Source: Alphaproteobacteria bacterium
GTDB lineage: Bacteria > Pseudomonadota > Alphaproteobacteria > Rs-D84
Direction of reading: 5' to 3'
Length of the DNA stretch: 64,000 bases
Assembly (NCBI GenBank): GCA_017629245.1
Contig: JAGBXO010000002.1
Location: 86,475-150,474, forward strand
Shown here: one piece after another, positions 8,732-60,988 of the stretch
How positions within the stretch are numbered: position 1 is the first letter of the stretch
Layout of the letters: the number at the start of each line of letters is the position of its first letter
The notes under the pieces: generated by a model
Databases searched by the model: none
Told to the model about the DNA's origin: nothing
Seen by the model: the letters and a program-made list of their open reading frames with translations, nothing else
Made by a program: the position numbers and the translations under genes

Positions 8732-10490
8732 CAAAGAGATTTCACGCACCTTTGACAGACGTAGCGCATTGTTTTTAACTGCCGGGGCGGTATTGACATC
8801 TGTGTTGGTTATGCGAATGTTGCAAATGCAGTTGGTGGGATATCAGGACTATAAAAAGAAAAGCGAAAATAATTCTTATCGTATTCAAATTAATATGCCT
8901 GAACGCGGTAAAATATTGTCACGCAGTGGCGCCCCAATTTCACGCGATGTGCCGACATATCGTATATATATTGTCCCAGAAGAAGCACGCGATATTGATG
9001 AACTGGTCGCGACGGTACAATACGAATTAAACCTGAAACAAAAGAAAGTTGATAAAATAAAAGCAAAAATAAAAAAACAAATGAAATTCCAACCGGTATT
9101 GGTCAGTGAAAATACCGATTGGGGAAAACTGGCCAAATTACAGGCAAAAAATCTGCCGGGGTTACATGTGGAAAGCGGGTATTCGCGCGTATATGAAATG
9201 GGACCTGCGGGTGCACAGATTTTTGGGTATATTGGTGCCCCTGCAAAACCTGTGCCAAATGCCCCATTCTTTACAACAGGTATAACGGGGCTGGAAAAAA
9301 AATTTAATGATGTTATGCACGGTGATGCAGGTCAAACAGTTATGATAACAAATGCGGTTGGACGCATCACTGGCGAAGACAAATCACAATATGTTGCGCC
9401 AACAATTGGCGATAATGTTCAAACAACTATTAACGAAAATGCACAACGCGTTTTATATGATGCGTTGACCCAACACCGTTCGGGGTGTGGGGTGGCATTA
9501 GATATTGATACAGGTGATATTCTGGCAATGGTATCTGTGCCCAGTTTTGACCCAAATATGTTCCAGCAAGATGATGGCGATGAATATATTGACAGTCTGC
9601 GCGACGATATCGCAAAACCTTTTATGAACAAGGCAATAGAAGGATTGTATCCACCGGGTTCTACATTTAAAATCGTTGTTGCGTTGGCCGCGTTAGAGGC
9701 AGGAGCAATCACAGAACGCGAAAAAATTTTCTGTCCAGGATACTGGGACTATGGTGACCGCAGATATCACTGTTGGGAACATAAAGGGCACGGTAAAATG
9801 GATCTGGCAGGTGCTTTGAAGCATTCGTGCGATATATACTTTTATCAAGTGGCTTTGCGTATTGGAATTGATGCGATTAAGGAAATGGCGTTGCGTTTGG
9901 GATTTACAGAAAAATATATGGACGATGTCTTATCACGCGAAATGCCCGGTGTTATTCCAGATAGATATTGGAAAGAAAAACAAATTGGATACAGATGGGT
10001 TCATGGCGATACGGTTATATCAGGTATCGGACAGGGATTTATCCTAACAAATTGTCTGCAATTGGCAACAATGATGGCACGAACCGTTTCAAATAAACGC
10101 GTTGTTCCACGACTGATTAAGACAGATGAACGTCCCAGATTCGAAAGCATGAAATTGCAGAAAAAAAATATTGATGCAGTGTTAAAAGGACTGGAAGAAG
10201 TTTTAAAAAAAGGTGGAACCGCGGCTGCTTCTGCAATTAATGTTAATGGTAAGCGTATGGGCGGAAAAACCGGAACATCCCAGGTTCGCAGTATTTCTAA
10301 AAAAGAACGCGAAAGTGGCGTTCTGACCAACGAACAATTAAAATGGCATATGCGAAATCATGGATTGTTTGTTGGATACGCACCAACAGACAATCCAAAA
10401 TACGCCGTATGCGTTGTAACAGAACATGCCGGTGGCAGTGGACCGGCCGCGAGAACAGTCGCGGCCGTGATGAAGGAATTGTTAAAATAA
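8724..10490 (+). CDS. mrdA: penicillin-binding protein 2
   Basis: YPPGSTFK (SxxK), SCD, GKTGT motifs. Confidence 0.95.
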   Translation: MIDKEISRTFDRRSALFLTAGAVLTSVLVMRMLQMQLVGYQDYKKKSENNSYRIQINMPERGKILSRSGAPISRDVPTYRIYIVPEEARDIDELVATVQYELNLKQKKVDKIKAKIKKQMKFQPVLVSENTDWGKLAKLQAKNLPGLHVESGYSRVYEMGPAGAQIFGYIGAPAKPVPNAPFFTTGITGLEKKFNDVMHGDAGQTVMITNAVGRITGEDKSQYVAPTIGDNVQTTINENAQRVLYDALTQHRSGCGVALDIDTGDILAMVSVPSFDPNMFQQDDGDEYIDSLRDDIAKPFMNKAIEGLYPPGSTFKIVVALAALEAGAITEREKIFCPGYWDYGDRRYHCWEHKGHGKMDLAGALKHSCDIYFYQVALRIGIDAIKEMALRLGFTEKYMDDVLSREMPGVIPDRYWKEKQIGYRWVHGDTVISGIGQGFILTNCLQLATMMARTVSNKRVVPRLIKTDERPRFESMKLQKKNIDAVLKGLEEVLKKGGTAAASAINVNGKRMGGKTGTSQVRSISKKERESGVLTNEQLKWHMRNHGLFVGYAPTDNPKYAVCVVTEHAGGSGPAARTVAAVMKELLK

Positions 10491-10504
10491 GGCAATAAAA
10501 ACAT

Positions 10505-11650
10505 ATGGTAAAACAAACACGCGTTTCAAATGCAAACATGATGACAATGCCAGAAAAATTGGGGCGGTTTTCGTGGGGACTGTTTGTGCCAATGTGTATG
10601 GTACTGACAATTTCTATTGTGGTTTTATATTCAGCCGGCGGTGGTAATTGGCGCCCATTTGCATTATCACAACTGATGAAGATTATTTTGGCGTTTGGTG
10701 TATTCTTTTTTGCTGCTTTTACAAATATAAAAACATGGATTAAATCTGCATATCTGATTTATGCAATTGCGCTGATTATGATTGTGTTGGTTACATTTGT
10801 TGGACATACAGGTATGGGGGCGCAAAGATGGTTAAACCTGGGATTTATACATATTCAACCATCAGAACTGATTAAAATTGCACTGGTGCTGGCACTGGCG
10901 CGATATTTCGCATGGTTTAATTCGGTTGAATTGGGACAATTTAAAAACTATCTGGCACCAGGATTAATGCTGCTGATTCCGTTTGGATTAATTGTTGCGC
11001 AGCCTGATTTGGGAACAGCGTTATCGCTGGGGATGATTACAGTTGGGATATTCTATATTGTTGGTGCAAATAAAAAATGGTTTATTATCGCGGCAATACT
11101 GGGGTGTATGGCAGCGCCGGCAATTTGGTTCGGTGGACTGCACGATTATCAACGTGGGCGCATTATTACACTGTTTAATCCAAACAGCGACCTGCAAGGT
11201 GCAGGGTATCAAATTAACCAGGCAAAAATTGCGTTTGGCAGTGGGGGTATGACAGGTAAAGGATATATGAAAGGCTCGCAATCTCAGCAATCTTTTCTGC
11301 CAGAAAAACAGACGGATTTTATATTCACTATGCTGGGGGAAGAGTTTGGTTTCATTGGTGCATTCGGTCTGCTAGCAATCTATACTTGGATTGTAGTTTT
11401 ATTGTTCTGGGCAGCAAAAAAATGCCGAAACAGATTTGGACAATTAATATGTTTTGGTTTTATGTTGAACTTTTTTGTTTATTACTTTATAAATATTTCC
11501 ATGGTTTTGGGATTACTGCCAACGGTTGGTGTGCCGTTGCCGTTAATGTCGTTTGGTGGCAGCAGTTTGTTATCACTGATGTTTGGGTTTGGACTGTGCC
11601 AAAACGCATATATTCACAAAGACCAACAATTATCTGCAAAGGGGAGTTAA
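10505..11650 (+). CDS. rodA: rod shape-determining protein RodA (SEDS)
   Basis: GAQRW, QPSE..K, QPDLGT, LPEKQTDFIF, PLMSFGGSS. Confidence 0.95.
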   Translation: MVKQTRVSNANMMTMPEKLGRFSWGLFVPMCMVLTISIVVLYSAGGGNWRPFALSQLMKIILAFGVFFFAAFTNIKTWIKSAYLIYAIALIMIVLVTFVGHTGMGAQRWLNLGFIHIQPSELIKIALVLALARYFAWFNSVELGQFKNYLAPGLMLLIPFGLIVAQPDLGTALSLGMITVGIFYIVGANKKWFIIAAILGCMAAPAIWFGGLHDYQRGRIITLFNPNSDLQGAGYQINQAKIAFGSGGMTGKGYMKGSQSQQSFLPEKQTDFIFTMLGEEFGFIGAFGLLAIYTWIVVLLFWAAKKCRNRFGQLICFGFMLNFFVYYFINISMVLGLLPTVGVPLPLMSFGGSSLLSLMFGFGLCQNAYIHKDQQLSAKGS

Positions 11651-18000: not shown

Positions 18001-20430
18001 TTATTCCACTGCCCCTTGGCGTTTTAAGTATTCACCAACAAAATTATTTCCATACATCTTATATAATTCTTCTGCCAATAATACAGATGAACGACCAGAT
18101 TCAAACAGACGCAACAAATTGCCCAAACCACCCAGTTCCGTATTTAAAATTACAGATTCACCATTTACCGGACGTGACAGTAATACCGCGCGCTTTAAAT
18201 TGGGATATGCCTTGCCCTGGATAAATGCCATTTCCAATGGATTTAAATTCCAATGTGCATAGTCGTTAGCGTCAGCTGCAGGATTGCGGAAGAACATAAC
18301 TGTTTGCGCCTGACCACGAACAACATCACCAATCCCCAGTTTATCCAGCACATTAGCACGCTGGAACGCGACCATGTATGCCTGGCGGTTTTTACGCCCT
18401 TCTTGCAGACCGGCAATAAAGTTGTCACGGAACATCTTGTTTTCCAGCATAGGTGCTGTTTCGTCAATCATAATCAAGGATGGATTACCACCAGATACAG
18501 TTGTATTATTAATACGATGTAGTATATAAGATATAACCGCAGGGGATAATACTTCGTCTTGCAAAATATCGGTAAAATCAAATGTTGTTAAACGCGATTC
18601 TAAATCAAGGGTATCTGACATTTCATTAAACATGTCGCCATACTGCAGTGGATCAACCCACTTTTTCAATGCAGGACGCATATTTCCAGTTGAAGAAAAA
18701 CAACTTTCCCACAGATTCTTTAATAAACGATCTTTGTCCGATAAATAATCAAAGTTCACAGATACAGCGCGCGCAATTTCATCAGCAGAATTTGCGTCAC
18801 CCTGACCAGATATAATCGCAAACCAACGGCGCAAAAATGCGCGATTTGCCGCTGTATCAGGCATTTTTAGCGGATTTAGGCGCGCCAGAAAACTTTGTGC
18901 CATTGGATCAGATTTTTTTTCTTTGCCCTGCATGGTGATGTACTTTCCACCGATGGCCATAGTAAAGATTTCTGCACCACGATTACGGTCAAAAAAGAAA
19001 GCCTTTAATTTTGGGTGACGCAATGATTGCGCAATCAAAAATGAAAATAATGTTGTCTTACCACCACCAGTTGGTCCAATTGTCATTGTATGACCCACAG
19101 CAACTGGTTTATCAGAAACATGGAATTGGAACTGATACGGTGTTCCCTGGGCGGTTGGAAATACAACCAGGGGGCCAGGACCCCAATCTGAATTTGGAAC
19201 GCCACGCGGCTGGGTTGACATAGGAATAGATATTGCCGCGGTGCGCGATAATAACTTAAAACTGCGTGGAAAAATATCAAATCCTGGAATTTGCGCAAAC
19301 CAGGAAACCTTGGATGCAAATGTTTCAACAATTGGAGAAATTCCAAAGGATGCAGAAATCTTTTTGAATTCATCAATATGTTTTTGTAGTTCTTCGCGGG
19401 TTGAACCAAATATTATGAACAAAGGATAATAATTAACCAAACTTTGTGTACCAGATAGGTTTTCATCCATTGCGGATTTTATTTCAGATATCTGTTGTTC
19501 GGTTGAATCTTGGTTGTCTTCATCGGCAGTGGAACGGCGTTGGCGGATTGTTTTTTCAACGTCTGCATTGCCCATAATACCAAACCCATTCATACAAATC
19601 ATTTCAGTTTGAATTGTGTGGACGGTGTCAAAAAATTCTTCGTCCATGTAGTCTGGTGAAATCTTGAAAGAAAGACATGCTGAAAATGTTTGGTTGCCGC
19701 CACTGATATAGCGGACAATACCGTCTTTTAAAAATTCAACATCATCAACAGTTACCAGATTTGCAATATTATTGTCGGCTGTTTTAGGTGAAGGTTTAGA
19801 TATCGGGGATAAAATCCGCCCGAAAAAGCGCGCCATATTGTCGGATGTATTGTTTTTTAATACAGTTGGTTTATATGCAGCAAAAATTGATTCAATATAA
19901 TTACTATACTGATTTAATTTTGCACGCGCATCAGGGCCGGATACAGATAATACAATATAATAACTGTTTAGAAATATCTTTAAACCCTGGCCCTGCCATT
20001 TGTTATATATTTTTTGCAAGACGGGTTGATTAAATTCATATTTCAGGTTTTCATCAGCCGCATCACGGATTGTATAAAAACGCAAAACTGTACTGCGGTC
20101 GCGAATCTGATTGAATAATTGGGCGCGCAAATCCAAGAATTTTTTGCGGGTTTCATCGTCTTGCATACTGGTTTGAATACCGGCAACACGATAAACGCGT
20201 ATTAATGACCCGTCTGTCAAAGACATGGTGTTATCGTTATACACCGTTTGAAATGGTAAATAATTTGCATACTTAGCATAACCAAAACGTGGAAATATTT
20301 TGCGAGTTAAGGTTGGTATATATATCAACATTACAATGAATAACAGCAATACTGCCATCGCCATAATAACCATTGTTAATGGAAAACCACTGCCTGCAAA
20401 ATAGTTAAAAATTTCTGAAAAATTTATCAT
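18001..20430 (-). CDS. virB4: VirB4 family type IV secretion ATPase
   Basis: SWFAQIPG, PxGTPY.F.FH, GHTMTIGPTGGGKT (Walker A), FDRNRG, LNPL, IMIDE (Walker B), GRKNR. Confidence 0.9.
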   Translation of the reverse strand: MINFSEIFNYFAGSGFPLTMVIMAMAVLLLFIVMLIYIPTLTRKIFPRFGYAKYANYLPFQTVYNDNTMSLTDGSLIRVYRVAGIQTSMQDDETRKKFLDLRAQLFNQIRDRSTVLRFYTIRDAADENLKYEFNQPVLQKIYNKWQGQGLKIFLNSYYIVLSVSGPDARAKLNQYSNYIESIFAAYKPTVLKNNTSDNMARFFGRILSPISKPSPKTADNNIANLVTVDDVEFLKDGIVRYISGGNQTFSACLSFKISPDYMDEEFFDTVHTIQTEMICMNGFGIMGNADVEKTIRQRRSTADEDNQDSTEQQISEIKSAMDENLSGTQSLVNYYPLFIIFGSTREELQKHIDEFKKISASFGISPIVETFASKVSWFAQIPGFDIFPRSFKLLSRTAAISIPMSTQPRGVPNSDWGPGPLVVFPTAQGTPYQFQFHVSDKPVAVGHTMTIGPTGGGKTTLFSFLIAQSLRHPKLKAFFFDRNRGAEIFTMAIGGKYITMQGKEKKSDPMAQSFLARLNPLKMPDTAANRAFLRRWFAIISGQGDANSADEIARAVSVNFDYLSDKDRLLKNLWESCFSSTGNMRPALKKWVDPLQYGDMFNEMSDTLDLESRLTTFDFTDILQDEVLSPAVISYILHRINNTTVSGGNPSLIMIDETAPMLENKMFRDNFIAGLQEGRKNRQAYMVAFQRANVLDKLGIGDVVRGQAQTVMFFRNPAADANDYAHWNLNPLEMAFIQGKAYPNLKRAVLLSRPVNGESVILNTELGGLGNLLRLFESGRSSVLLAEELYKMYGNNFVGEYLKRQGAVE

Positions 20431-28264: not shown

Positions 28265-29527
28265 TTGGCCGGTCAAATTTTAAATATTAATCGCAAGAAA
28301 TATGCCGTTGGCTTGTTTTGGCAGCCGATGGGTGTTGGTGCAACTGTGCGCAATTATGCGCGGACTTTGGCACGCGGTGTCGATAAAAAACTGAATTTAT
28401 ACACCCAGTATCGCGCAATGATTGGGTTGGCTGCACGCAGAAATGGTGCGCGTGCAGGTATGTTGAGTGCGGCAGCCGAAGTGATGGAAAGTTTTTCAGA
28501 ATATACTTCGTTTCTGGCGGTCTTTGCGGTGCCACGCGGATTTTATATGGTGGCGGCGCGTAATGGTGTTATTCTGGTAGATAAATTGTTTGAATCAGAA
28601 ACTGATGCGCGCAGTGAATATGTAAAAATGTCTGAAATCCCAGATTGGGGGGCGTTCTTTGCGCCGGGGGCATGGGGAATGCCCAGGGCAGCGGAAAGAA
28701 ATCTGGGGGATTTGCTGAATGGGCAATCGCGTGCGGTGTTACACACAATCAGTCGATTTGGACCGCGGATGTTGTCAGGTTTATTGTTGGCTGTGTTTGC
28801 GTTGGGGATGTTTTTTATTTTCAAGGATTCTGTTGTGCAGGTGTTTGCACCACGGCCCCAGGTGGCGGAACTGAATCCAGAATTAGTAGCGGAATATAAG
28901 AAGCAAATAGAAGAAAAATCTAAAGAATTAGACGAACAGTTTGAAATTGAAAAACAATTGCCACCAGAACCGATAGTTATGCCGTATGAGTTGTTACCTG
29001 ATATGATGGCACGTGCTGGACAGTGTTATCAGGCGATTGCATTTTTAATGCAACCGATTGTTGGGTGGAATCAGGTTAATGTGGTGTGTGGCGAAACGCA
29101 TGCGATTGCTGATTTTAAACGTGATTTTGGAACCCTGGATGGTTTTTATAGTATTGCAACGGATTTAATGCCAGGGGCTTTTGTGTCCGAAGTTGATGAA
29201 GATACATTGCGTGTTCAAGTTGCTTTGCCAGAATTAGAAAGTTTTTCCAGTCAGGATGAACGCGATGCTGATACAGTTGTACGTGATGTGACATCTGTAT
29301 TTCAGGGGATAAACACAATTATTGATACGGAAATTGTAGTTGATACATTGACCAATGGGGTTGATGTGGAAACTGTTAATGTGGTAGAGGTTGGGGTAGA
29401 ATCTAAACTGACACCACAACAATTCATGGAAATCTTTGCGGATTTCGGTGGTGTGTATTTAATGCAAGCGGGATGGAATGCGCGTACGCGTTCGTGGAAC
29501 TATGAGGTGTTAATCTATGCAAAATAA
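28265..29527 (+). CDS. type IVb pilus accessory protein PilO2-like
   Basis: N-terminal YAVGLFWQ, central TM; first gene of a pilO-P-Q-R-like order; TTG start. Confidence 0.7.
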   Translation: MAGQILNINRKKYAVGLFWQPMGVGATVRNYARTLARGVDKKLNLYTQYRAMIGLAARRNGARAGMLSAAAEVMESFSEYTSFLAVFAVPRGFYMVAARNGVILVDKLFESETDARSEYVKMSEIPDWGAFFAPGAWGMPRAAERNLGDLLNGQSRAVLHTISRFGPRMLSGLLLAVFALGMFFIFKDSVVQVFAPRPQVAELNPELVAEYKKQIEEKSKELDEQFEIEKQLPPEPIVMPYELLPDMMARAGQCYQAIAFLMQPIVGWNQVNVVCGETHAIADFKRDFGTLDGFYSIATDLMPGAFVSEVDEDTLRVQVALPELESFSSQDERDADTVVRDVTSVFQGINTIIDTEIVVDTLTNGVDVETVNVVEVGVESKLTPQQFMEIFADFGGVYLMQAGWNARTRSWNYEVLIYAK

Positions 29528-30203
29528 GAAAATGTTTTTGTTGGGTGCGATTTTTTGCGGTGTTTTATTTGTAGGAAATGCGCGTGCAGATGAGTTAATA
29601 GAAGAAGTAACAGAAGAAGTTTCTGTGGAGCAGGTGTCGGCAGATGCAGTTGCGGCGTATGACCCAAATGGTTCTTTGTTTCAACAAATTACAGACTTAG
29701 AACAAGAAAAGGTTTTAATGCAATTGGAAAAGGAACGTGCGCAATTAGACCTGGAATTAGATAGGTTGGCGGCAGAAAAAATTAAACTGCATATGGAAAT
29801 TGATACGCTGTCTGGGCGTGCGGAACAACAGCAACAAGAAATTGAAACACAAAAGGCGAAGTTAGAGGCCGAGGCTGCACGTATCGAAAAAGAAAAAGAG
29901 TCTTGGTTGAAAGAAATAGAGGAAGCAGAAAAGGCGGAGGTAAAAGATTATAAATCGGCAGCAGCTCAACAAGAAGCAGCCCAGGTAGATGTGTCTAAGA
30001 ATTGGAAATTGGTTAATGTTGTTGGTGCGGGTGCACAATTGCAGGCGACGGTAGAAGATTTGAATAGCGGTCAAAAAAGACGGGTTAGTGTTGGTAAAAC
30101 ATTGGATGGAATGACAGTCAAGACAATATCATTGTATGATGGGGTTGTTTTGGTTGATGGTGATGGTAATACACAGGTATTAAATATAAGCAATGGAAAA
30201 TAA
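29517..30203 (+). CDS. PilP-like type IVb pilus protein
   Basis: Signal peptide, coiled coil, C-terminal beta domain (VVGAG..ATV...VG..DG.TVKTI). Confidence 0.6.
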   Translation: MQNKKMFLLGAIFCGVLFVGNARADELIEEVTEEVSVEQVSADAVAAYDPNGSLFQQITDLEQEKVLMQLEKERAQLDLELDRLAAEKIKLHMEIDTLSGRAEQQQQEIETQKAKLEAEAARIEKEKESWLKEIEEAEKAEVKDYKSAAAQQEAAQVDVSKNWKLVNVVGAGAQLQATVEDLNSGQKRRVSVGKTLDGMTVKTISLYDGVVLVDGDGNTQVLNISNGK

Positions 30204-30208
30204 TTAAT

Positions 30209-31843
30209 ATGGCAAAAGATAAAGAAATCTTGGCGGATATTGATTTAGCAAACAAGCCGTCTGTACCGGCGGGGTTAGAAGGGGCAGAATCTAAGGATAT
30301 TATTGATTATTTGTTTGCGAATGGTAATCGTTTGCTGACGGCGACGGGGGCAATTTTAGAATTACCACATGATACACAAAGTTTGATTGCGTATTTTACC
30401 GGTGGGGAAATTATTATTTCGCGTACGCACCGCTATGATGGGCGGGTTTTGGCGTTTTTAGATTTACTGAAACGCCGTGGTCGAAAAATGCGCGAACCGT
30501 TTTATTCTGATTTGGGGTTGATATCAAATATATATAAATCTTATGAAATGCGTTTGGGGGGTGGGGCGCGCATCCGCCAGGACTTTGATAACCAAATGCA
30601 AAAGGATTTTGTTGATATTATTGCAAAAGCAGCGGCGCAAAAAGTGTCGGATGTTCATATAGAAGTTGCAGACCAAACAACAATCTTTTTTCGAATTGAC
30701 GGCAGTATGCAGCCGGTGATGGAATATAATTCGCAATGGGGGGAATCTTTTGTTCGTGCGGCGTTTGCGTCCGCGGATATGTCAAATGCGAACTATGCCC
30801 AGAATGAATATCAATCAGCACAAAAAGATGGACGGACACCTTTGCGTGGAACCAAGGATTTGTATCTGCCAACTGGGGTTTTGGGTGTACGTATGCAATT
30901 TAATCCGATTGCGTTTGGCAGTCGGTATGTTGTTATGCGTCTGTTGTATGATAATCCGTCCGAAGGGCTGAAGACAGAACAAGAATTTGGACCATATGAA
31001 CAGCGTCTGTTGGCGCGTTTGCGTTCTTTTCCAACAGGGTTAGTTATTGTTGCAGGGCCAACCAGTTCAGGAAAATCTACGACACTGGTGCGCAATATGT
31101 CAATGATGCTGCGTGAACGAAACTATGAAATCAATATGATTACGGTGGAAAATCCGGTTGAACAAAAGATTTTTGGCGCACGACAAATGCCTGTTGTTAA
31201 TACAACAAACGAAGAACAACGTGAAGAGAAGTATGTGGAAGCATTGGCGGCTGCGTTGCGCAGTGACCCAGATACCTTGATGGTTGGGGAAATTCGTACG
31301 CTGGCCGCGGCGCAGTTGACGGTACGTGGGGCGTTATCAGGACATAATGTTTGGACGACACTGCACGCGAATTCGGCCATGGCGGCATTGACAAGGTTGT
31401 TAGATTTAGGAATAGAACCGTTTAAGTTAAAAGAAGAAACGTTGATGCGTGGATTGGTTTCAATGAGGTTGTTTAAAAAACTGTGTCCGCATTGTCGTGA
31501 GCAATTGTCGGCACACCCAGAACGTGGTGCGTATCGTCGTGTTATGGATGCGTATGGTGATATTGGTCTGCGCCAGGTTTATCAACGCGGGGCAGGGTGT
31601 GAACACTGTAATGGAACAGGAAATATTGGTCGTATTAAGGCAGGTGAAATTATCATTACAAACAGTGAATTTTTGCGTCTGGCCTTGGCAGGAAATACAG
31701 ATGCGGCGGTGCGTTATTGGATAGAAGAAATGGATGGACGCACATTGAAAGAGGCGGCAGTGTCTCTGATGTTGCAGGGGGTTATTAGTATTGATGAAGT
31801 AGAGCGTTGGGTTGGTCAATTGAATCAGCCGGGGGTATATTGA
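30209..31843 (+). CDS. type IV pilus assembly ATPase (PilQ/BfpD, GspE family)
   Basis: SDVHIE, RIDG, GPTSSGKST, ALRSDPD.LMVGEIR, GH..WTTLHANS, two CxxC. Confidence 0.9.
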   Translation: MAKDKEILADIDLANKPSVPAGLEGAESKDIIDYLFANGNRLLTATGAILELPHDTQSLIAYFTGGEIIISRTHRYDGRVLAFLDLLKRRGRKMREPFYSDLGLISNIYKSYEMRLGGGARIRQDFDNQMQKDFVDIIAKAAAQKVSDVHIEVADQTTIFFRIDGSMQPVMEYNSQWGESFVRAAFASADMSNANYAQNEYQSAQKDGRTPLRGTKDLYLPTGVLGVRMQFNPIAFGSRYVVMRLLYDNPSEGLKTEQEFGPYEQRLLARLRSFPTGLVIVAGPTSSGKSTTLVRNMSMMLRERNYEINMITVENPVEQKIFGARQMPVVNTTNEEQREEKYVEALAAALRSDPDTLMVGEIRTLAAAQLTVRGALSGHNVWTTLHANSAMAALTRLLDLGIEPFKLKEETLMRGLVSMRLFKKLCPHCREQLSAHPERGAYRRVMDAYGDIGLRQVYQRGAGCEHCNGTGNIGRIKAGEIIITNSEFLRLALAGNTDAAVRYWIEEMDGRTLKEAAVSLMLQGVISIDEVERWVGQLNQPGVY

Positions 31844-31844
31844 T

Positions 31845-32915
31845 ATGAAAAAACTGGAATTATTATATGCTAAGATGATGTTCCGGTTGAATACGGAAAA
31901 GCGTATGGCGATTTGTCGCAAGTTGGCGTCGCTGTTGCGGAATGATTTTACACTGATTGATGCGCTGGAACGGTTGGAAATGGTGGAATCTAAAAATGGT
32001 AAAAAACCAAATGAACCATTTGCAATTGTTATGCGCCAGTGGCAAAAAAATCTGGAACGCGGTATGACTTTTTCTGAGGCCACGCGTGGTTGGGTGCCGC
32101 CGAATGAAACACTGTTGGTGACATCGGGAAATTTATCAAACCTGGTGGTTGCATTGGAAAATGTTGGGCGTGTGGTTGATGGTATGCAACGCATTAGGCG
32201 TGCAATGACAACGGCGGTTGCGTATCCTTTATTTTTATTGGCGTTGACATTTGGTATTATTATTATGGTTGGAATTTACCTGGTACCCCCATTAGCCGAG
32301 GTTGCAGGAAACTCTGTTGTATGGCGTGGGTCGGCGCGCAGTTTGGTGTGGCTGTCGGATGTGTCTATTAAATATTGGTATGTTTTCTTGATCGCATTTG
32401 CATCTGGTGTTGCGATTGTTTGGTTGACATTGGCGAATTGGACCGGGCGGTTGCGTGCAACATTTGATAAATTTCCACCATGGAGTACATATAAAATTCA
32501 GGTATCGGTTGGTTGGTTGATGAGTTTAGCTGCCATGGTCAGTGCGGGTGTGACAATTCCAGATGCAATGCGTATGTTGGCAGACAGTGCAAACAGATAT
32601 CTGCGCAATATTTTAGATAGGGCGTTAAGGTTTATTGCAAATGGCGATAACCTGGGGCGAGCGTTACAAAATACAAACCGTGGTTTCCCAGATGATGAAA
32701 TTATAGGCGACTTGACAATTTATGCAGATATGAATGGGTTTGATGAAAACCTGGCCCAGGTTGCAAATGATTATTTAAATGAATCTGTTCGCAAGATGGA
32801 AAAAATTTCAAATACGCTGAACAGTATGGGGATTTTACTGGTGTCTGCGATTATTGCGTGGGTTGTTTTGGGGACATTTCAGATGCAGGACCAGATTACA
32901 TCCGCATTATCGTAA
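31845..32915 (+). CDS. platform protein PilR/BfpE (T2SSF family)
   Basis: RGMTFSEA..GWVP.NE, AVAYP, GFPDDEII; 3 TM. Confidence 0.85.
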   Translation: MKKLELLYAKMMFRLNTEKRMAICRKLASLLRNDFTLIDALERLEMVESKNGKKPNEPFAIVMRQWQKNLERGMTFSEATRGWVPPNETLLVTSGNLSNLVVALENVGRVVDGMQRIRRAMTTAVAYPLFLLALTFGIIIMVGIYLVPPLAEVAGNSVVWRGSARSLVWLSDVSIKYWYVFLIAFASGVAIVWLTLANWTGRLRATFDKFPPWSTYKIQVSVGWLMSLAAMVSAGVTIPDAMRMLADSANRYLRNILDRALRFIANGDNLGRALQNTNRGFPDDEIIGDLTIYADMNGFDENLAQVANDYLNESVRKMEKISNTLNSMGILLVSAIIAWVVLGTFQMQDQITSALS

Positions 32916-44577: not shown

Positions 44578-44928
44578 ATGCAAAATCGTATAAATGTTTT
44601 GGCACAAAATTTGAATTTAAGTTTGTATCAATCAAATAAACTGAAAACTAATTATGAACAGTATAATATTTCACGCCTGGTAAAGCGGGGCGGGGTGCTG
44701 TTTGCGCCGTATAATATGCCGGGGATTTTTGGCTGGATTGGGCGCGTGTTGTTTGGGGTGCGCGCAGATTTAATTGGTGAAAATAAAATACTGTTGCAAG
44801 GGATGCGTAAGATAAAATTTTGCGCGAATGGTTATCACTGTGTGCGTGTTGGACGGCATGTATATTATGCAGATGCATCAGGTAATGTTGTATCGCGTGG
44901 GGAATTTATAGAAAACACACGGTGTTAA
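44578..44928 (+). CDS. hypothetical protein
   Basis: 116 aa with SD. Confidence 0.6.
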   Translation: MQNRINVLAQNLNLSLYQSNKLKTNYEQYNISRLVKRGGVLFAPYNMPGIFGWIGRVLFGVRADLIGENKILLQGMRKIKFCANGYHCVRVGRHVYYADASGNVVSRGEFIENTRC

Positions 44929-47402
44929 AAACGGTCGTGTGTTTCAATAAATGCACGCATAAAATTGATATCAATATTTTGCATTATATCAGACAGTGAA
45001 TACTGGCGGCCACCGTTCGGCAGTATACCCAGTTCTATTGTTGCAACATCTGGTGCGGTGCCACGCATGATGATATCAAATTCTGCCGTCATTAAACCGT
45101 CTGTTATTGCCAGGCCACCAATAATATCGGTGTGACGGGCGGATAGGTTTATTGCCTCGGTCGATATAAAGTTTCCATCAGAATATGTGCCGACGATTCT
45201 CATTTCTTTGATTTTTGTTTCGCCATCAGTCAGGGCGCGTGCCAATGCGCGTTCGGCGTTTAATCGGGTTATGTTTTTAGCAGATGCGTAAAACTCGTCA
45301 GTTCCCAGACCAATTAAATAGCCGTTGTAAAATGTTAAATCAATGTCGCCAGACATATTGTAATAAATGTCATTTGCGATTTGACCAGATGTGTTCATTA
45401 CAATTTGGCCAGTTATCATTGTGTCACGAATATTCAGTGGCATTTGTGGGGATAATAATTTGCCGTTGATTACAAATTGGTTTAGTTGTGCAAATATATT
45501 GTATTTGGATTTGTCGCGTTCAATGGTTGCTAGTAAATTACCGCGTTCGGCATCTGTGATAGAAAATGTCTGGGAATTTTTTTTCAAAGAATACAGAAAG
45601 TTTTTATAACTGTTGCCGTTGTAAATCAATGTATTTGCAGACAGTGATATATTAAGCGGTAAATTAAACAGTGTTAGAACAGGTACATTTGCCAAGAATT
45701 CCATTTGTTCTGCATTTTTTATAAATTCTGGATTTATAAAAGATTCTAGGTCTAAGGATGTGGTATTTAATGTGATGTTTTGGCCGGATGCGCTGCCTGA
45801 AAATTCATGGCCTGATATCTTTATGTTCAGATTTGATATTCTGTTTTTATCATAAAATCCAGATATACTGTATGCGCCGTCGCGCAGGAATCGTGTATCC
45901 ATATCAATTGGTAACCAGGTTTTATAATTCTTGCCGGTCAGGTGAAAATAATTATCGTACATGGAAAGTTGCCATTGCTTGTTATGTGGGGCAAAGGTCA
46001 GCATGTCTTTGTTCCATGAAAAATTACCCGGTGCATTTTGTATAAAGTCGGGCAAAAAAGGCATATTGATATTTAACCATTTTAGGGTTTTGTTTTGTGC
46101 ATAACTGTATGATGGGGTTATGCCAGATGGGCTGATTTTATATGTGCCAGCAATGTCAGAGAAACGGAATTTTATAATACCGTTGGTGCCAAAATGTTTG
46201 ACCATTTCTAATAATTGGTCATCGGTTGGCATTTTCTTGTTAGATTCCATATTGATATAAAATGTGTCACCATCAACAGATAGACTGCCTGAAATGTTGC
46301 CATAGGAAAATTTACTGCATTCCCATTTCTTTGGTGTGCCAGAAAACAGGCACATTGCAGGTGTTTTATTTATTGGCATTGTTATCATCAGGTTTTTTGC
46401 ACCGTTGCCGGTTATGGTGCCACCGGTGATTGCTATATTGTCTGCGACAATGTTTGCAATTTGAAATGCGTTGTTGGTGCCGGTTGCTTGAATTCGCAGG
46501 TGGTGAAATTTATGACGCATAAAGGTCAGGTCACCATAAAAATCAAGGTTTAATTTTGTACGATTTATTAAATCGTTTGTTGCCAAAAGAAATGAAAAAT
46601 CCATATTCAGGTCATCGGATACCAATTGGATGTCTTTGTCGCCGTTTGGAAATATTTCAATGTTGCCTGATACATTGTCGGCCGTGATGTTTGTGAATTT
46701 GTATCCATTACCACCGTTCCATTCAAAATCCATATCCAGTTTAACGGTTTTTGTGATTTTAGGTTTTTGGATGTTGAACCATTCGTTTATATGGTCTGTT
46801 TCAACGGAAATATGACCGCGGATTGAACCGTCAGAAAACATTTGACCGTTGATTTCCAGTTTGTCGTTTTTGTTTACTATTTTGAATGTATCGCCAGAAA
46901 ATTCAACATCGTATTTGTGTTCGGCGGTACGGATTATGCCGTGAAATTCGTTGTCTGTAAAGTCTGCGCGAACAATATGGAATTTACGTCCCATAAAGTT
47001 TATATCACTGTTGTACAATTCTATGTTATGGTTGAAAAACGCAGGGGCCAATTTATCAATTGTTATGTCGGCATCATATACAACAACAGGGCCATTTAGG
47101 CGCGCGTTTTTGATGTCAAAGAAACTGCGAAATGGAATTGAAAATATTACAGATCCAATATGGGCGGTTGGGACATTTACATCGTGTGCGACGATTGTTG
47201 CGCCGCCAATCAGACTGAAATGTATGTCGCCATTTAATTTTGCGGGGACATTTGTTTGTTCGGCAACAGACTTTTCAACCATAGGTTTCAGGCTGTTCAA
47301 TGTTATCATCGGGGGAATAAATATCATTGCCATTACCAGTGCGGTAATGGTGCAGATTATGCTCCAAAATATTCTTCGCTTGTGTCTTGGTTTAAGTGCC
47401 AT
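44925..47402 (-). CDS. AsmA family protein
   Basis: N-terminal TM + 'GDIHFSL', beta-rich body, AsmA-like C-terminus (SGDIDLTF.NG.L.G, GET, G.YSDG). Confidence 0.65.
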   Translation of the reverse strand: MALKPRHKRRIFWSIICTITALVMAMIFIPPMITLNSLKPMVEKSVAEQTNVPAKLNGDIHFSLIGGATIVAHDVNVPTAHIGSVIFSIPFRSFFDIKNARLNGPVVVYDADITIDKLAPAFFNHNIELYNSDINFMGRKFHIVRADFTDNEFHGIIRTAEHKYDVEFSGDTFKIVNKNDKLEINGQMFSDGSIRGHISVETDHINEWFNIQKPKITKTVKLDMDFEWNGGNGYKFTNITADNVSGNIEIFPNGDKDIQLVSDDLNMDFSFLLATNDLINRTKLNLDFYGDLTFMRHKFHHLRIQATGTNNAFQIANIVADNIAITGGTITGNGAKNLMITMPINKTPAMCLFSGTPKKWECSKFSYGNISGSLSVDGDTFYINMESNKKMPTDDQLLEMVKHFGTNGIIKFRFSDIAGTYKISPSGITPSYSYAQNKTLKWLNINMPFLPDFIQNAPGNFSWNKDMLTFAPHNKQWQLSMYDNYFHLTGKNYKTWLPIDMDTRFLRDGAYSISGFYDKNRISNLNIKISGHEFSGSASGQNITLNTTSLDLESFINPEFIKNAEQMEFLANVPVLTLFNLPLNISLSANTLIYNGNSYKNFLYSLKKNSQTFSITDAERGNLLATIERDKSKYNIFAQLNQFVINGKLLSPQMPLNIRDTMITGQIVMNTSGQIANDIYYNMSGDIDLTFYNGYLIGLGTDEFYASAKNITRLNAERALARALTDGETKIKEMRIVGTYSDGNFISTEAINLSARHTDIIGGLAITDGLMTAEFDIIMRGTAPDVATIELGILPNGGRQYSLSDIMQNIDINFMRAFIETHDRF

Positions 47403-49906: not shown

Positions 49907-50020
49907 TGTAAACAGTGCGCCGGAAAAACACACAGCGGACTTTCCTAGAAAAAAAGCCCCGAACCCACATCCCGACGGCGTGGTGTTTAAAGAAAATACA
50001 CCAGAAAATGGTGTATTTTT
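49907..50020 (+). ncRNA. candidate structured small RNA of unknown family
   Basis: TTGCAC-17-TATTCT promoter, terminal stem 49909-49989, terminator 49993-50020, no ORF. Confidence 0.5.
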
Positions 50021-51806
50021 AATTTTCAGAAATAGGTGTTCTTTTTAATAAACTGTGTACCGCCAATGGAAAGTCAGGACTGCGTGCTAGGTAAGAACCT
50101 GATATAAGTAAATCTGCACCTGCATCCCAACACAGTTGGGCAGTTTTATCGGTTATGCCACCATCAACTGAGATTAAAAATCTAAGTCCATATTTTTTGC
50201 GTGTCGCCGCCAAAACAGAAATTTTGTGCAGGGCGGTTGGTTCAAAGTTTTGACCCGCCGCTCCAGGGGTTACAGACATTATCATTACTTCATCAATATC
50301 GCGTAAAACAGATTTTAATAAGGATACGGATGATTCAGGATTCAGCGCAATTCCAACACGACGACCGGAATTTTTTACAACACGGATTGCGTTGCGCAGG
50401 CCAGATGTGTTGGTTGACAGTATTACTGTGTCTGCGCCTGCGGATATGGCGTCGGCCGCCCATACAGATGGACTCTCGGTCATTAAATGTACGTGTAGGT
50501 GGGCGTTTGTGTGTGCGCGAATTGTTTTTAATTCTTCTATGCCTCCGGCAATTCGGTCAACATAAAATCCGTCCATAATATCAACATGTATCATAGATAT
50601 GCCGCCGGATTTAAACATGCTGTATGTGTTCGGGTTGCGCATGTCAAAACATAGTGTGCTGGGTAAAACAGGGATAAATTTTGTTTTTTGTTTTGGTTTG
50701 CGATTAAGGATTTTGCTAAACCAACTTGTGCGTGTTGCCCATCTTTCGTGGCGCGCAATGTATTTTTGACGATGTGCATCTTCTGATTTCCAGATATGGT
50801 CGGCCAGTGCACGAACAGTCGCATCAATACCAAGAGTTTCTGTTACCACAGCAAAAGCGTTTTCAATAAAATCACGCAAACCGTCGGTTTCGGCACCGCC
50901 ACCTGTTAGTATGATTTTTGATGGTCGGTATTTTGTAAATGATGTTAGGCATTGATCTTTAATCTGACCAATGATGTCAACCAAGATTGGTAATATTATG
51001 TCGTTAACATCGCCACGTGAAAAATCGTATGCTGTATCAGCAGGGGTGAATCTGTCCATGTCGCGTGGTATCAGTGATGCGACCGCGCGCTTAATTCGGT
51101 CAGCCGATTCAGGGTCCAGATTTAATGTGTTAGATATTGCGTTTGTTATATCGTGGCCACCCAGTTTGATTTTTGTGTGCCAAACGGGGCCGCGGTCTGT
51201 CCAAATAGATGCAGATGTATATTCGTTGCCGAAATCAATGAACATTACAGTCTGTTTCTTTTCACGATAATTTGTGTTTAATAAAAACTGTGGGTCATAG
51301 AAAGATGTGGCCTGGATGTGTGCCCCACGAAGATGTTCATTGATTTTGTTTATACCATTTGCGGAATAGAAAATTGTACTAAATGCAGATACTAATTGTC
51401 GGTCAATATGTCCAACAGGTGACAACATATTGCGCGCAGTGGGGGTATCATACCGTAATGGTATAATGTGAACAGGAAAATATTTTTCGGGTGGTGTTAT
51501 TTGCGATATTTGATTGCGTATGTCTGTATTAGTGATTCTGTGTTCGCCAGACCAGGTTGTGCTTTTTGCGGTCATTTCAAACGCAGATTGTCCCAAGTTT
51601 CCCGTGATATAGGCCGAGTCAAAATGTGCGCCAATTTGTCGTTCCAGTTCATCTGTTACAGATTTTATGGCAAATATGGTATCGGTACTGTCAATTGTGA
51701 AAAATGCAGAACGATCAATTTGGGCACCGTGAATACGGTGCGCAATACCGCGCACACCATATGTGCCAATATCCAGACACAAAAAAGATGAATCATACAG
51801 GTTCAT
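50019..51806 (-). CDS. FtsA-like actin-fold domain fused to ribulose-phosphate 3-epimerase
   Basis: aa 1-~370: LDIGT, IDFG, LGGHDIT..I, ILTGGGA. aa ~378-595: HVDIMDG, HLM, MSVTPG..GQ, VDGGI, GAD..ISGS. Follows ftsQ. Confidence 0.85.
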   Translation of the reverse strand: MNLYDSSFLCLDIGTYGVRGIAHRIHGAQIDRSAFFTIDSTDTIFAIKSVTDELERQIGAHFDSAYITGNLGQSAFEMTAKSTTWSGEHRITNTDIRNQISQITPPEKYFPVHIIPLRYDTPTARNMLSPVGHIDRQLVSAFSTIFYSANGINKINEHLRGAHIQATSFYDPQFLLNTNYREKKQTVMFIDFGNEYTSASIWTDRGPVWHTKIKLGGHDITNAISNTLNLDPESADRIKRAVASLIPRDMDRFTPADTAYDFSRGDVNDIILPILVDIIGQIKDQCLTSFTKYRPSKIILTGGGAETDGLRDFIENAFAVVTETLGIDATVRALADHIWKSEDAHRQKYIARHERWATRTSWFSKILNRKPKQKTKFIPVLPSTLCFDMRNPNTYSMFKSGGISMIHVDIMDGFYVDRIAGGIEELKTIRAHTNAHLHVHLMTESPSVWAADAISAGADTVILSTNTSGLRNAIRVVKNSGRRVGIALNPESSVSLLKSVLRDIDEVMIMSVTPGAAGQNFEPTALHKISVLAATRKKYGLRFLISVDGGITDKTAQLCWDAGADLLISGSYLARSPDFPLAVHSLLKRTPISEN

Positions 51807-51813
51807 GTGTGTT

Positions 51814-52494
51814 TTATTTTATTAGAATGCGTGCATCATCACGCATGTCTATGGTTTTTATTGCCTTGCCCAGGATTCTGTGTTTGGTGTTTAATGTCAT
51901 CAGTGTGTTGATTGCAGATATTGGATTTATTTCAGGCAACATTACTGTTATGCCACCGGTTGTATATATGTTCCAACGGCGATTTTCAATCCATTCCATG
52001 TAATCTATATTGCCAACCAGGTTATGGGCGGCGCGTGTTATTTCAGATATGTCATTTGGTACAGGACCCCGAAATACAACGTCGGCTATATTGCGTACAT
52101 TTGTTGGGGTGTTTACAATTGTGCCATCTGCAGACAGTGGAAAATAATTTTCGCCATCTGTCCACAGTGCAACTGTCTGATGCATGTTCGTGCGAATGAT
52201 AATGTTGCCGTTTGGCAGACGACGAACTGCACAGTCTTTGACCCCTGGGACTGTGGATATGCGTTCCTTTAATATATTCAGGTCAACAGATTTTACCGGT
52301 GTATTTGGGGTAATAGATGCAGCCACTGCAATTGCAGAAAGATTTTGATCGCGGGTATCTGACGATATTGAAATGTTGCGAACATGTGCCAATGGGCCAC
52401 GACCACTGATTACCATGATAATGCGTGTGGCAAAATATATGCCAAAAATAATGGCGATAACAAAACACAGCCAAAACCAGATTGAACGCTTCAT
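51814..52494 (-). CDS. ftsQ: cell division protein FtsQ
   Basis: TM, POTRA (VKDCAVRRLPNG), NRRWN, IDMRD. Confidence 0.85.
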   Translation of the reverse strand: MKRSIWFWLCFVIAIIFGIYFATRIIMVISGRGPLAHVRNISISSDTRDQNLSAIAVAASITPNTPVKSVDLNILKERISTVPGVKDCAVRRLPNGNIIIRTNMHQTVALWTDGENYFPLSADGTIVNTPTNVRNIADVVFRGPVPNDISEITRAAHNLVGNIDYMEWIENRRWNIYTTGGITVMLPEINPISAINTLMTLNTKHRILGKAIKTIDMRDDARILIK

Positions 52495-52549
52495 GCGCAA
52501 TATTATATCATAAAATATATTAATAGGCAAAGATGAGAGAAAATATTTT

Positions 52550-52936
52550 TTACATCGCACGCAACAGATATCCACGACGGAACATGCAACGACGGTATGC
52601 ACCAATTGTGCGTGATGCCGTGTTGCGTGGTACAGACATCAGACTGCGTTGGCCAACATCACGATATTCGTTTGATTGAAATGTTACCCACAGGCCGTCC
52701 CAGTCGGGCATAATTCCGGCTTGGTTTGGGGATAGTAATTTTGAAATGCGGGAACGTGGCTGATATGATGGGCGGTCGATCCCCAGACATGATTTATGGT
52801 CACGAACAAATTGTTCGGTTGTGACCGCTTCGTTTTCCCAATTAAGGACGGTTGCATCATCAATACTGCCGCGGTTGACAGATGCGCAGGACGATAAAAA
52901 TAATGCCAAAAATATGGTCGGAAATTTTATTCTCAT
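52550..52936 (-). CDS. hypothetical lipoprotein
   Basis: Lipobox LSSC; D..SC...RCM..RGY pattern. Confidence 0.7.
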   Translation of the reverse strand: MRIKFPTIFLALFLSSCASVNRGSIDDATVLNWENEAVTTEQFVRDHKSCLGIDRPSYQPRSRISKLLSPNQAGIMPDWDGLWVTFQSNEYRDVGQRSLMSVPRNTASRTIGAYRRCMFRRGYLLRAM

Positions 52937-58723: not shown

Positions 58724-60988
58724 ATGGCAAAGAATTCTAAATTTTTACCCGACAGTGTTTCGGGGGCGTTGAAAAGTTTGCTGTCCCGCATGTTTGGTGG
58801 GGTGGTATGTGTATTTGGTGCATGGGCGACATTGGCGTTGATTTTCTATAACCCATATTTAGACGGGGTTAGTGTGGCCAGTTCGTTTGGGGTACAATCT
58901 TGGATGGGGAATCTGGTTGGGTCAATCAGATGGTTAGTTGGAACTGTGCCGGGTGTGTTTTTATTTATGTGTTTATCACGGTGGGGTTTGGTCAAGGCAT
59001 TGGGAATGGTGGGCAGTGAAACACCAGAATATAATTTCTTGCGTGTATTTATTGCGCTGTGTGTTGGGGCTGTTGGTTTTGGATTGGTATCACCCAGTGC
59101 GACATATGGTGGAATTTTTGGTGCTATCGCAGCAAATGATTTGATGTTTGTGATGGGAAAAATAGCGATTTTACCGGGAATTTTATGTCTGGTTGCGTTT
59201 ATGTGGATGGGGGGCGTGTTGTTGCATATTAAATGGGCACATTTGCGTATGGCAATGCGGATAACATGGCGTTGGATTCGTTGGCTGGGCAGTGCGTTTC
59301 ATTTAACACGTGCCGAAGGTGCGACCACTGTATTTGAAGATGATAAAACAATAGAAGAAGAACCAGAAGCACCCAAGGAAAGTGAAGCGCCTAAGAAAGT
59401 AAGACGCGGTTTGTTGGGACGTAAAAGCATAAAGGCTGTAGCGGCTGTTGCGCCTAAGGTGGCAGAGGCCACGCCTAAAAAAGTTCGTGCAACATCGGTC
59501 TATAAATTGCCAGATACGAAATTGTTGGAACGGTCTAATTTTAGCAAATATGTTGTGACACCAGAACTGAAGCAAAATGCCCGCAGTATGGAGGTGAAAT
59601 TTGCCCAATATGGCGTGCGTGGCAAGGTTGTGGGTATCAAACCGGGGCCGATTGTGACACTGTATGAATTTATGCCAGATGATGGTACGCGTATGGCCGA
59701 TGTTAATAAGACTGTGACTGATATGACGCGCGCAATGGCAACAGAAAGTATTCGTATTGCGCATATTCCGCGCACTCAATTGATTGGTGTGGAAATGGTT
59801 AATGCCAAGCGTCAGACCGTGCGTTATCGTGGCCTGATGGAAGATGAATTGTTTGTTGATACAAAATACAAAATTCCATTGGCGTTGGGTGTGGATATTG
59901 GTGGAAATCCAATGTACTTTGATTTGGCAAAGATGCCGCACATGTTGGTTGCAGGGCGTACAGGGTCGGGTAAGTCTGTATTTGTTCAGTCAATTATTAC
60001 ATCGATTGTTTATCATTTTACGCCTGATAAATGTAAACTGATTATTATTGACCCCAAGGGGGTGGACTTTGGATTTTGGGATGATATTCCACATTTGATT
60101 ACACCAATTGTAAAGTTAGAACCAGAACCAGCAGTTAATGCGCTGAAATGGGCGGTGCGTGAAATGGAAGAACGGTACAAGCAATTGCAGGTTCTGAATG
60201 CGCGCAATATTGAAAGTTATAACGAAACTGCTGCGCAAAAACGCGCTGCGGGTGAAAGAATGACCAAGCAGGTCGCTGTTGGTACAGACCCCGAGACAGG
60301 TGAACTATTATTCGAAACCCAAGAAATAGATTTATCTGATATGCCGTATATGGTCATTATTATTGACGAGGTTGCAGATTTGATGAGCCTGGCCCGCAAG
60401 GATGTAGAAGCGTGCGTACAACGCATTGCACAAAAGGCGCGCGCGGCTGGTATTCACCTGGTGATGGCGACCCAACGACCAGACGCGACAACAATTACAG
60501 GTGTTATCAAGGCGAATTTCCCAACACGTATTTCTTTCCAGGCGCGCAGTCGCATTGACAGTGTGACATGTCTGGGCGAAGGTGGGGCAGAACAATTGCT
60601 GGCCATGGGGGATATGTTGTTTAGTGAGGCAGGACGTGTTCCAGTGCGTATCCACGGGGCATTTATCGATGACCGCGAGTTAACGCAAATTGGTAATTTC
60701 CTGCGCAGTCAGGGTACGCCAGAATATGCCGAAGGTGTGACCGACGGCGAAGGTGGTGGGGATGTTCCTGGTATGCCAGGTGCAATTCCAGGTGGTGGTG
60801 GAGATAAGGAAGCAGACCTGTATGAACGCGCCAAAGAATGTGTTATTCGTGATAAAAAGCCGACAATTTCATATATTCAGCGTCGTCTGCAAATTGGATA
60901 TAACAAGGCAGCCGGATTTATGGAACGCATGGAACAAGATGGGATTGTGTCGGCGCCGGATGCAAACAACAAGCGTCATATCCTTTAA
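58724..60988 (+). CDS. ftsK: DNA translocase FtsK
   Basis: 4TM N-terminus, DLAKMPHMLVAGRTGSGKS, IIDEVADLM, ATQRP, gamma domain (IQRRLQIGYNKAA). Confidence 0.97.
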   Translation: MAKNSKFLPDSVSGALKSLLSRMFGGVVCVFGAWATLALIFYNPYLDGVSVASSFGVQSWMGNLVGSIRWLVGTVPGVFLFMCLSRWGLVKALGMVGSETPEYNFLRVFIALCVGAVGFGLVSPSATYGGIFGAIAANDLMFVMGKIAILPGILCLVAFMWMGGVLLHIKWAHLRMAMRITWRWIRWLGSAFHLTRAEGATTVFEDDKTIEEEPEAPKESEAPKKVRRGLLGRKSIKAVAAVAPKVAEATPKKVRATSVYKLPDTKLLERSNFSKYVVTPELKQNARSMEVKFAQYGVRGKVVGIKPGPIVTLYEFMPDDGTRMADVNKTVTDMTRAMATESIRIAHIPRTQLIGVEMVNAKRQTVRYRGLMEDELFVDTKYKIPLALGVDIGGNPMYFDLAKMPHMLVAGRTGSGKSVFVQSIITSIVYHFTPDKCKLIIIDPKGVDFGFWDDIPHLITPIVKLEPEPAVNALKWAVREMEERYKQLQVLNARNIESYNETAAQKRAAGERMTKQVAVGTDPETGELLFETQEIDLSDMPYMVIIIDEVADLMSLARKDVEACVQRIAQKARAAGIHLVMATQRPDATTITGVIKANFPTRISFQARSRIDSVTCLGEGGAEQLLAMGDMLFSEAGRVPVRIHGAFIDDRELTQIGNFLRSQGTPEYAEGVTDGEGGGDVPGMPGAIPGGGGDKEADLYERAKECVIRDKKPTISYIQRRLQIGYNKAAGFMERMEQDGIVSAPDANNKRHIL

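Follow-up and report, generated by a model that had tools for sequence, protein, structure and literature searches.

FtsA and ribulose-5-phosphate 3-epimerase form one polypeptide chain in the Enterousia family of the alphaproteobacterial order Rs-D84

Why would a bacterium keep the cell division protein FtsA and the pentose-phosphate enzyme ribulose-5-phosphate 3-epimerase (Rpe) in one and the same chain? The question is raised by a gene at 50019..51806 on the minus strand of a 64,000-nucleotide stretch (contig JAGBXO010000002.1, assembly GCA_017629245.1), which was analyzed as a whole and is called the window below. The metagenome-assembled genome it comes from (G000) has 934,506 bases and is 98.35% complete. 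A first-pass annotation, made from the letters alone, had described one open reading frame (ORF) of 595 residues, 7 bp after ftsQ, in which a divergent FtsA, a membrane-type helix that is now internal and a Lys-rich linker lead into a complete Rpe barrel. This description proved to be accurate, and we show that FtsA-Rpe is a genuine and old single-chain protein of the Enterousia family (f1) which, within its order, is confined to that family. Candidatus Enterousia is placed in the GTDB order Rs-D84 in excerpts of PMC12306168; the sister families of that order are called f2–f6 here.

The gene is a single ORF of 595 codons with an ATG start (51804-51806) and a TAA stop at 50019-50021. Its ATG lies 7 nt from the stop codon of the ftsQ-like gene (51814-51816), directly downstream of ftsQ as in the sister families. 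To follow the junction, contigs, not raw reads, of the runs X1, X4, X5 and X6 were compared with the gene; X1 is maybe the source sample and hence not independent. Assemblies from three independent studies run across the junction with no gap: X4 covers 50019-51726, X5 the whole stretch and X6 50019-51244. All differences from the gene are substitutions, and none of those listed gives a stop codon (six further ones lie outside this list). Moreover, an intact fused ORF was found in all 94 related loci, 86 of them distinct, so that neither a stop nor a frameshift breaks the junction in relatives. These loci comprise 14 from a genome search and the best 80 of 291 stretches (of 311) that encode a relative; they come from metagenome-assembled gut genomes (ruminant, horse, human) recorded as Candidatus Enterousia or "Alphaproteobacteria bacterium". 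The best 120 clusters in a collection of 5.8 billion proteins are all 584–598 amino acids long and have the same Pfam architecture; their database name, where given, is only "ribulose-phosphate 3-epimerase". A search for longer proteins with the Rpe half gave 768 matches, the best 120 of which all belong to the same fusion family. Finally, the ratio of nonsynonymous to synonymous substitution rates (dN/dS) in 14 close pairs is 0.03–0.07 for the FtsA part, 0.01–0.06 for the Rpe part and 0–0.49 for the linker, which points to strong purifying selection on both halves.

We then asked what the two halves are. The structure was modeled with AlphaFold2 on a 66-row alignment, with a mean predicted local distance difference test score (pLDDT) of 95.5 and a predicted template modeling score of 0.64. 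The model has an N-terminal domain (residues 3–344), a 25-residue helix (343–367), a coil (368–379) and a barrel that begins with a strand at residue 380. Pfam finds FtsA PF14450 (residues 189–319), PilM_2 and Ribul_P_3_epim PF00834 (residues 394–573) on the same chain. The PF00834 match is strong (E 2.4e-42, 145.1 bits against a cut-off of 21.1), phmmer aligns residues 379–586 to residues 5–214 of the Rpe of S. pyogenes, 2FLI (E 8.6e-37), and the structural alignment to 2FLI covers residues 377–590 of the model with Z 32.9, a root-mean-square deviation of 1.4, 214 of 218 residues, 32% identity and a target-normalized template modeling score of 0.93. The subfamily model NF004076 is matched with 172.4 bits, above its cut-off of 165, and the stricter TIGR01163 with 152.8 bits, below its cut-off of 212.6. 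The predicted motifs H-x-D, HLM and VDGG are indeed there as H407-x-D409, H440-L-M442 and V-D548-G-G, and S383, H407, D409, H440, M442 and D548 are kept in all 86 distinct relatives. We take H407, D409, H440 and D548 to be the metal-binding and catalytic residues and M442 to be part of the Met cushion, with roles from the Rpe literature. By the structural alignment scores, the C-terminal half of the model is a complete (beta/alpha)8 barrel of the Rpe family. The PF00834 match is the single one in the genome and the barrel is thus its only rpe; tkt (transketolase) and rpiB are present. This fits excerpts of PMC12306168, by which the non-oxidative pentose-phosphate steps minus transaldolase are encoded in most genomes of Rs-D84.

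The same comparison identifies the N-terminal half of the model as an FtsA and not just any actin-like protein. It aligns to FtsA structures with Z 29.4–32.8 over 327–339 residues of the model region 3–344, while the scores for other proteins are lower (Z 21.6–25.1 for PilM; about 20–21, over about 255 residues, for MreB). The actin-like fold carries the subdomain 1C (SHS2) in place of the 1B subdomain of actin, and PF14450 is matched with 35.2 bits against a cut-off of 31.8. The DIGT, DFG and GGG motifs are presumably the phosphate 1, phosphate 2 and adenosine motifs of FtsA. Their residues are nearly invariant among the 86 sequences (D12 85/86, G14 85/86, D191 84/86, G193 86/86, G302–304 85–86/86).

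Between the two halves, the amphipathic helix (residues 343–367) that would close an FtsA is internal, with 228 residues after it. WFSKILNR, at residues 362–369, forms its end and runs over into the Lys-rich RKPKQKTK, just as had been noted. Model confidence drops here, to a pLDDT of 68–74 over residues 361–380. Over its 33 residues the linker carries a median net charge of +11, and its median peak hydrophobic moment is 0.70 (98th percentile in its own protein), compared to 0.57–0.83 for the ends of the sister FtsA proteins. It is the least conserved part of the protein (mean pairwise identity 0.38), and its character stays constant though its sequence varies. The sister FtsA proteins carry an amphipathic helix at the matching position, at their C-terminal end, and in the sister Rpe proteins a short basic N-terminal stretch precedes strand 1 (MFKKRKQKIQISPS..., MKRRKVLIGAS..., MKKNILISAS...). 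The fused linker consists of these two pieces, the FtsA C-terminal helix and the basic Rpe N-terminus, joined together.

How old is the fusion and where did it come from? It was matched in 41 of 42 f1 genomes from 16 genera. The genome without a match (G005) is 70% complete, and in G105 the gene is split over two contigs. None of the 16 genomes of f2–f6 has the fusion; there, where both genes were found, ftsA and rpe are separate yet linked. In G025 ftsQ, ftsA and rpe stand in a row, in G029 and G032 ftsA and rpe overlap by 1 nt, in G028 they are adjacent, and in G038 and G040 (family f3) one ATP-binding cassette exporter gene lies between them. In the tree the fused FtsA domains form one clade with a support of 100 in the Shimodaira–Hasegawa-like approximate likelihood ratio test (SH-aLRT), and one change is needed. 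Owing to long branches and an unresolved backbone, the clade does not stand beside the FtsA of the Rs-D84 sisters, and the orthology of the fused FtsA rests on gene order instead. Since ftsA and rpe of the sisters are adjacent and often overlap by 1 nt, the loss of the ftsA stop codon suffices as origin, and the fusion arose by this loss in the ancestor of family f1.

It had also been noted that ftsZ does not follow the fused gene. Indeed, the downstream neighbor is a convergent tsaE, and ftsZ was undetected in the whole genome. PF00091 (Tubulin/FtsZ) has no match in 63 f1 genomes, several of which consist of 1–5 contigs and are 97–100% complete, and was found in 25 of 29 sister-family genomes. 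In G000 neither PF00091 nor TIGR00065 nor PF13809 (Tubulin_2) gave a match, and the same is true for a hidden Markov model of six sister-family FtsZ proteins, used with all filters off (--max); tblastn found nothing either, with best E-values of 0.95 and 0.57. The genes that flank ftsZ in G028, G038 and G040, a phage-type portal and split terminase pieces, map to C9:88936-99878 of G000, where only a 111-aa ORF lies between a terminase piece and the portal and ftsZ is missing. Because these flanking genes are contiguous on one contig, we conclude that ftsZ was deleted rather than lost in an assembly gap.

The sister ftsZ genes sit among phage-type genes, a portal (Head-tail_con) and a split terminase (L124, G040:C2:140500-154500; L125, G028:C7:14500-28000; L122, G038), and the neighborhood in G028 also holds an AmiC-type amidase. 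The phage-type genes of G000 without ftsZ (C9:88936-95557) have dnaB and a helix-turn-helix gene between two terminase pieces.

The remaining division genes are largely kept. Each of the 52 f1 genomes searched, among them G000, has two genes of the SEDS (shape, elongation, division and sporulation) family. This genome has mraY-ftsW-murG on another contig, behind a class A penicillin-binding protein (PBP), a 545-aa class B PBP that is FtsI-like, and MreB; the window holds mreC, mrdA (PBP2) and rodA in a row and ftsK further on (7455-11650 and 58724-60988). With elongation genes and ftsK in the window and mraY-ftsW-murG elsewhere, the division and cell wall (dcw) cluster is thus dispersed in G000. 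ZapA is normally an FtsZ-binding protein. It was found in 24 of 25 f1 genomes, in G000 at C9:165094-165288 outside the window, which is unexpected without FtsZ. G027 (family f4), likewise without FtsZ, also keeps ZapA. For FtsB, the Pfam DivIC match is sub-threshold (19.9 bits). The surprise of this locus is therefore as much that FtsA is kept without FtsZ as that it is joined to Rpe.

What does the protein do? The explanation that we favor, and hold to be reasonably probable, is that FtsA-Rpe is a genuine, old and bifunctional protein of which both halves are needed, and whose FtsA half acts without FtsZ on the late divisome. Neighboring ftsA and rpe genes, often with a stop and start that overlapped by one base, were joined when the ftsA stop was lost in the ancestor of f1, and the FtsA helix and the basic Rpe N-terminus became an internal linker. 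By way of its basic amphipathic helix, the protein would sit at the inner face of the membrane. The FtsA half would still work in division and may link or activate the late divisome that is retained, namely FtsQ, FtsW, the FtsI-like PBP and FtsK; ZapA is kept as well. A direct activation of FtsW by FtsA has been proposed (Park et al. 2021, as cited in excerpts of PMC10591338). The Rpe half is predicted to be an epimerase and would be the active one of the cell. The fusion would be kept because both halves are needed, and the tethering itself may or may not be useful. Docking of FtsA (residues 1–345) against Rpe (residues 376–595) gave a score of 0.00, which carries no weight either way.

A number of observations weigh against this explanation. 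The FtsA half is very divergent: the ftsA model TIGR01174 gives 66.2 bits, under its cut-off of 175.85, and the identity to the sister-family FtsA is 18%, compared to 25% between sister families. It is also about 40 residues shorter than the sister FtsA, with deletions of about 10 residues near the C-terminus and in subdomain 2B, where, as we assume, the C-terminal peptide of FtsZ binds (PDB 4A2A). With such divergence and such deletions, the function of this half may have shifted. In one deep fused lineage (G087, P0147, P0160) Tyr replaces the phosphate-1 Asp and either His or Asn replaces D191, so that nucleotide binding is not kept universally. This lineage and two further exceptions discussed below were seen among 19 deep representative clusters; in it (L024 on G087:C4, P0147, P0160, P0161) the FtsA nucleotide residues are replaced and the Rpe residues are intact. 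According to excerpts of PMC10591338, both ftsZ and ftsA are absent from Chlamydia and from Wolbachia supergroup J, and in G027 neither FtsZ nor FtsA nor Rpe was found; a cell that has lost FtsZ thus has no obvious need of FtsA. Rpe, moreover, was not found in the sister-family genomes G027, G030, G034 and G064 and is therefore dispensable in the order. That the internal helix binds the membrane is predicted from composition only, and no RNA runs containing the fused gene are listed.

Several of these points could also mean that FtsA was repurposed and has no role in division anymore, but serves as membrane anchor, as a module that helps Rpe to fold or regulates it, or in some new function. 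Its divergence in excess of the sister FtsA, the deletions in subdomain 2B, the nucleotide-binding residues lost in one lineage and the other FtsZ-less bacteria that have no FtsA all fit this idea. In addition, the Pfam scan gave no match to SHS2_FTSA in the fused protein of the window, while this domain is matched in 7 of 7 sister-family FtsA proteins; 5 of 7 full-length deep fused relatives scanned match it too. Nevertheless, the gene still stands right behind ftsQ, and the whole fold including 1C is kept, with 335–339 residues aligned to the best FtsA structures compared to about 255 for MreB. The dN/dS of the FtsA part is as low as that of the enzyme half, FtsQ, FtsW, an FtsI-like PBP, FtsK and ZapA are all retained, and the stand-alone Rpe of the sister families needs no anchor. 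We consider a repurposed FtsA unlikely.

The first-pass annotation had suggested that pentose-phosphate metabolism is tethered to the divisome or that Rpe oligomerization was co-opted. The covalent tether is real, old and selected; functional coupling or a use of oligomerization is not supported by any of our results. Such an adaptive coupling could take two forms. The Rpe barrel could be an oligomerization hub which turns membrane-bound FtsA into a multivalent scaffold that replaces the one of FtsZ, or it could report the pentose-phosphate state to the divisome. The fusion and the absence of FtsZ indeed share the same distribution, in all 16 sampled f1 genera and no sister family, but this is one event each on one branch and hence no statistical evidence. 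2FLI has 12 chains of one sequence and Rpe relatives crystallize as dimers or hexamers, and FtsA and ZapA are both retained without FtsZ. A hint of a non-catalytic use comes from two deep fused relatives, P0132 and P0136, which keep the Rpe domain with the catalytic His/Asp replaced (PF00834 gives just 28.8 bits for P0132) and may point to a non-catalytic role of the barrel. The genomes of these two proteins, however, were not found among 26 relatives of G076, where the best match is 36% identical, so that a second rpe is possible there, and the catalytic residues are invariant in all 86 family members from genomes, as one would expect for a plain enzyme. We therefore regard adaptive coupling as quite unlikely. 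One may go further and speculate that FtsA-Rpe, instead of FtsZ, is the cytoplasmic organizer of division: Rpe would cross-link an FtsA array, possibly bundled by ZapA, which positions or activates FtsQ, FtsW and FtsI. We give this idea little credence as well. If it were true, a proteobacterium would have turned a metabolic enzyme into a structural component of a divisome that works without tubulin, and the supply of pentose phosphates could then gate division.

One ORF might also give two products if translation started internally, if slippage occurred in the A-rich linker or if a protease cut there, and the fusion would then be merely genetic. No other part of the protein is as poorly conserved, as low in model confidence or as basic as the linker, and 26 of 86 relatives have a Met at position 381, just ahead of the first barrel strand. 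The other 60 have no Met381, and in the gene of the window, as had been stated for the junction, there is no in-frame ATG, GTG or TTG between residues 321 and 388; the first one, M389, sits after the first barrel strand and has no Shine–Dalgarno-like motif. An internal Rpe start is accordingly rejected for this genome. Programmed slippage is rejected as well, since the longest A-run measures 2–8 nt in the 86 sequences and is not conserved. Altogether, we find two products very unlikely. The chance of an assembly error, a chimeric contig or a decaying pseudogene is practically nil, as nothing speaks for it beyond the metagenomic origin of the genome, and the gapless agreement of three studies, the 94 intact loci, the purifying selection on both halves and the confidence of the model rule it out.

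The main role ascribed to FtsA is to tether FtsZ to the membrane and to regulate it, and a Gram-negative gut family without FtsZ whose FtsA is under strong selection, and joined to an enzyme of central metabolism, is a natural system for the role of FtsA itself. How a proteobacterium with a cell wall divides in the absence of tubulin can likewise be studied in this family. The protein is small enough to be expressed, assayed and imaged, and the main questions can be addressed without culturing the organism. Since database names mention Rpe only, automatic surveys of division genes may score the family as devoid of FtsA. In the literature that we searched, with subscription journals and supplementary tables outside the scope, neither the FtsA-Rpe fusion nor an absence of FtsZ from these bacteria was found to be described, and the available sections of PMC12306168 on Rs-D84 do not contain the terms FtsZ, FtsA or "division". 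What the present analysis adds is the restriction to one family, the derivation of the fusion from neighboring genes with a frequent overlap of 1 nt, and a loss of ftsZ that extends over the family, is supported by synteny and leaves ZapA in place.

The features of the locus are collected in Table 1. The longest ftsQ frame begins with TTG (start at 52605), inside the last part of the lipoprotein-like ORF upstream of it (128 aa, 52550-52936). The true start is likely the ATG at 52494 (MKRSIWFW..., followed by a transmembrane segment), which would leave FtsQ nearly without a cytoplasmic tail.

Table 1. Coordinates of the fused gene, its parts and the ftsQ-like gene in the window, with the basis of each assignment.
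Feature	Position	Strand	Basis
ftsQ-like gene	51814..52605	-	longest ORF from TTG; Pfam FtsQ_DivIB_C E 8.7e-9, POTRA_1 E 3.2e-4
fused ftsA-rpe, whole gene	50019..51806	-	ORF; contigs of X4, X5, X6; 94 related loci intact, 540-640 aa
FtsA domain, aa 1-342	50781..51806	-	actin-like fold with FtsA-type 1C subdomain; DIGT (12-15), DFG (191-193), GGG (302-304)
basic amphipathic helix, aa 343-367 (...YIARHERWATRTSWFSKIL)	50706..50780	-	helix in model; place of the FtsA C-terminal membrane-targeting helix, here internal
Lys-rich coil, aa 368-378 (NRKPKQKTKFI)	50673..50705	-	coil 368-379 in model; likeness to the sister Rpe N-terminal extension
Rpe (beta/alpha)8 barrel, aa 379-595	50022..50672	-	Pfam, phmmer, structural alignment, NF004076; only rpe in the genome

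Elsewhere in the window, at 18001-20430 and 28265-32915, we saw a VirB4-type type IV secretion ATPase and a cluster of PilP-like, GspE/PilB-like and GspF/PilC-like genes, and this in a genome of less than 1 Mb. Near these secretion- and pilus-like genes, several ORFs of 200–600 residues have no NCBIfam match. Additionally, an 825-aa ORF at 44925-47402 with an N-terminal membrane segment has no NCBIfam match at E <= 1e-5.

How does the fused protein compare with known systems? With canonical FtsA (E. coli 7Q6D, Vibrio maritimus 7Q6F, Thermotoga maritima 1E4G/4A2A, S. aureus 3WQT/3WT0) it has the fold with 1C, the nucleotide motifs, the position after ftsQ and the amphipathic helix after the core in common, at an identity of 14–16% to the solved structures. 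Canonical FtsA ends in this helix, whereas the fused FtsA continues into an enzyme and has no detectable FtsZ to bind. The Rpe half shares the complete barrel and the His/Asp/His/Asp plus Met set with S. pyogenes 2FLI and other solved Rpe proteins; it differs from them in that it has no start codon of its own, comes after 378 residues of FtsA and linker, and is probably located at the membrane. The closest parallel is found in the sister Rs-D84 families, where the same ftsQ-ftsA-rpe order, the basic Rpe N-terminus and the amphipathic FtsA C-terminus are present as the parts of the fusion. There, in G025, G028, G029, G032, G038 and G040, the parts are two proteins of 398–426 and 195–258 residues, and unlike in G000 the FtsA C-terminal helix is free, SHS2_FTSA is matched and FtsZ is present. 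Finally, Chlamydia and Wolbachia supergroup J, as described in excerpts of PMC10591338, have like f1 no FtsZ and keep MreB, RodA and PBP2, in reduced genomes and with dependence on a host or partner. They have no FtsA, in contrast to f1, which keeps FtsA, fused and under selection, together with ZapA and FtsW.

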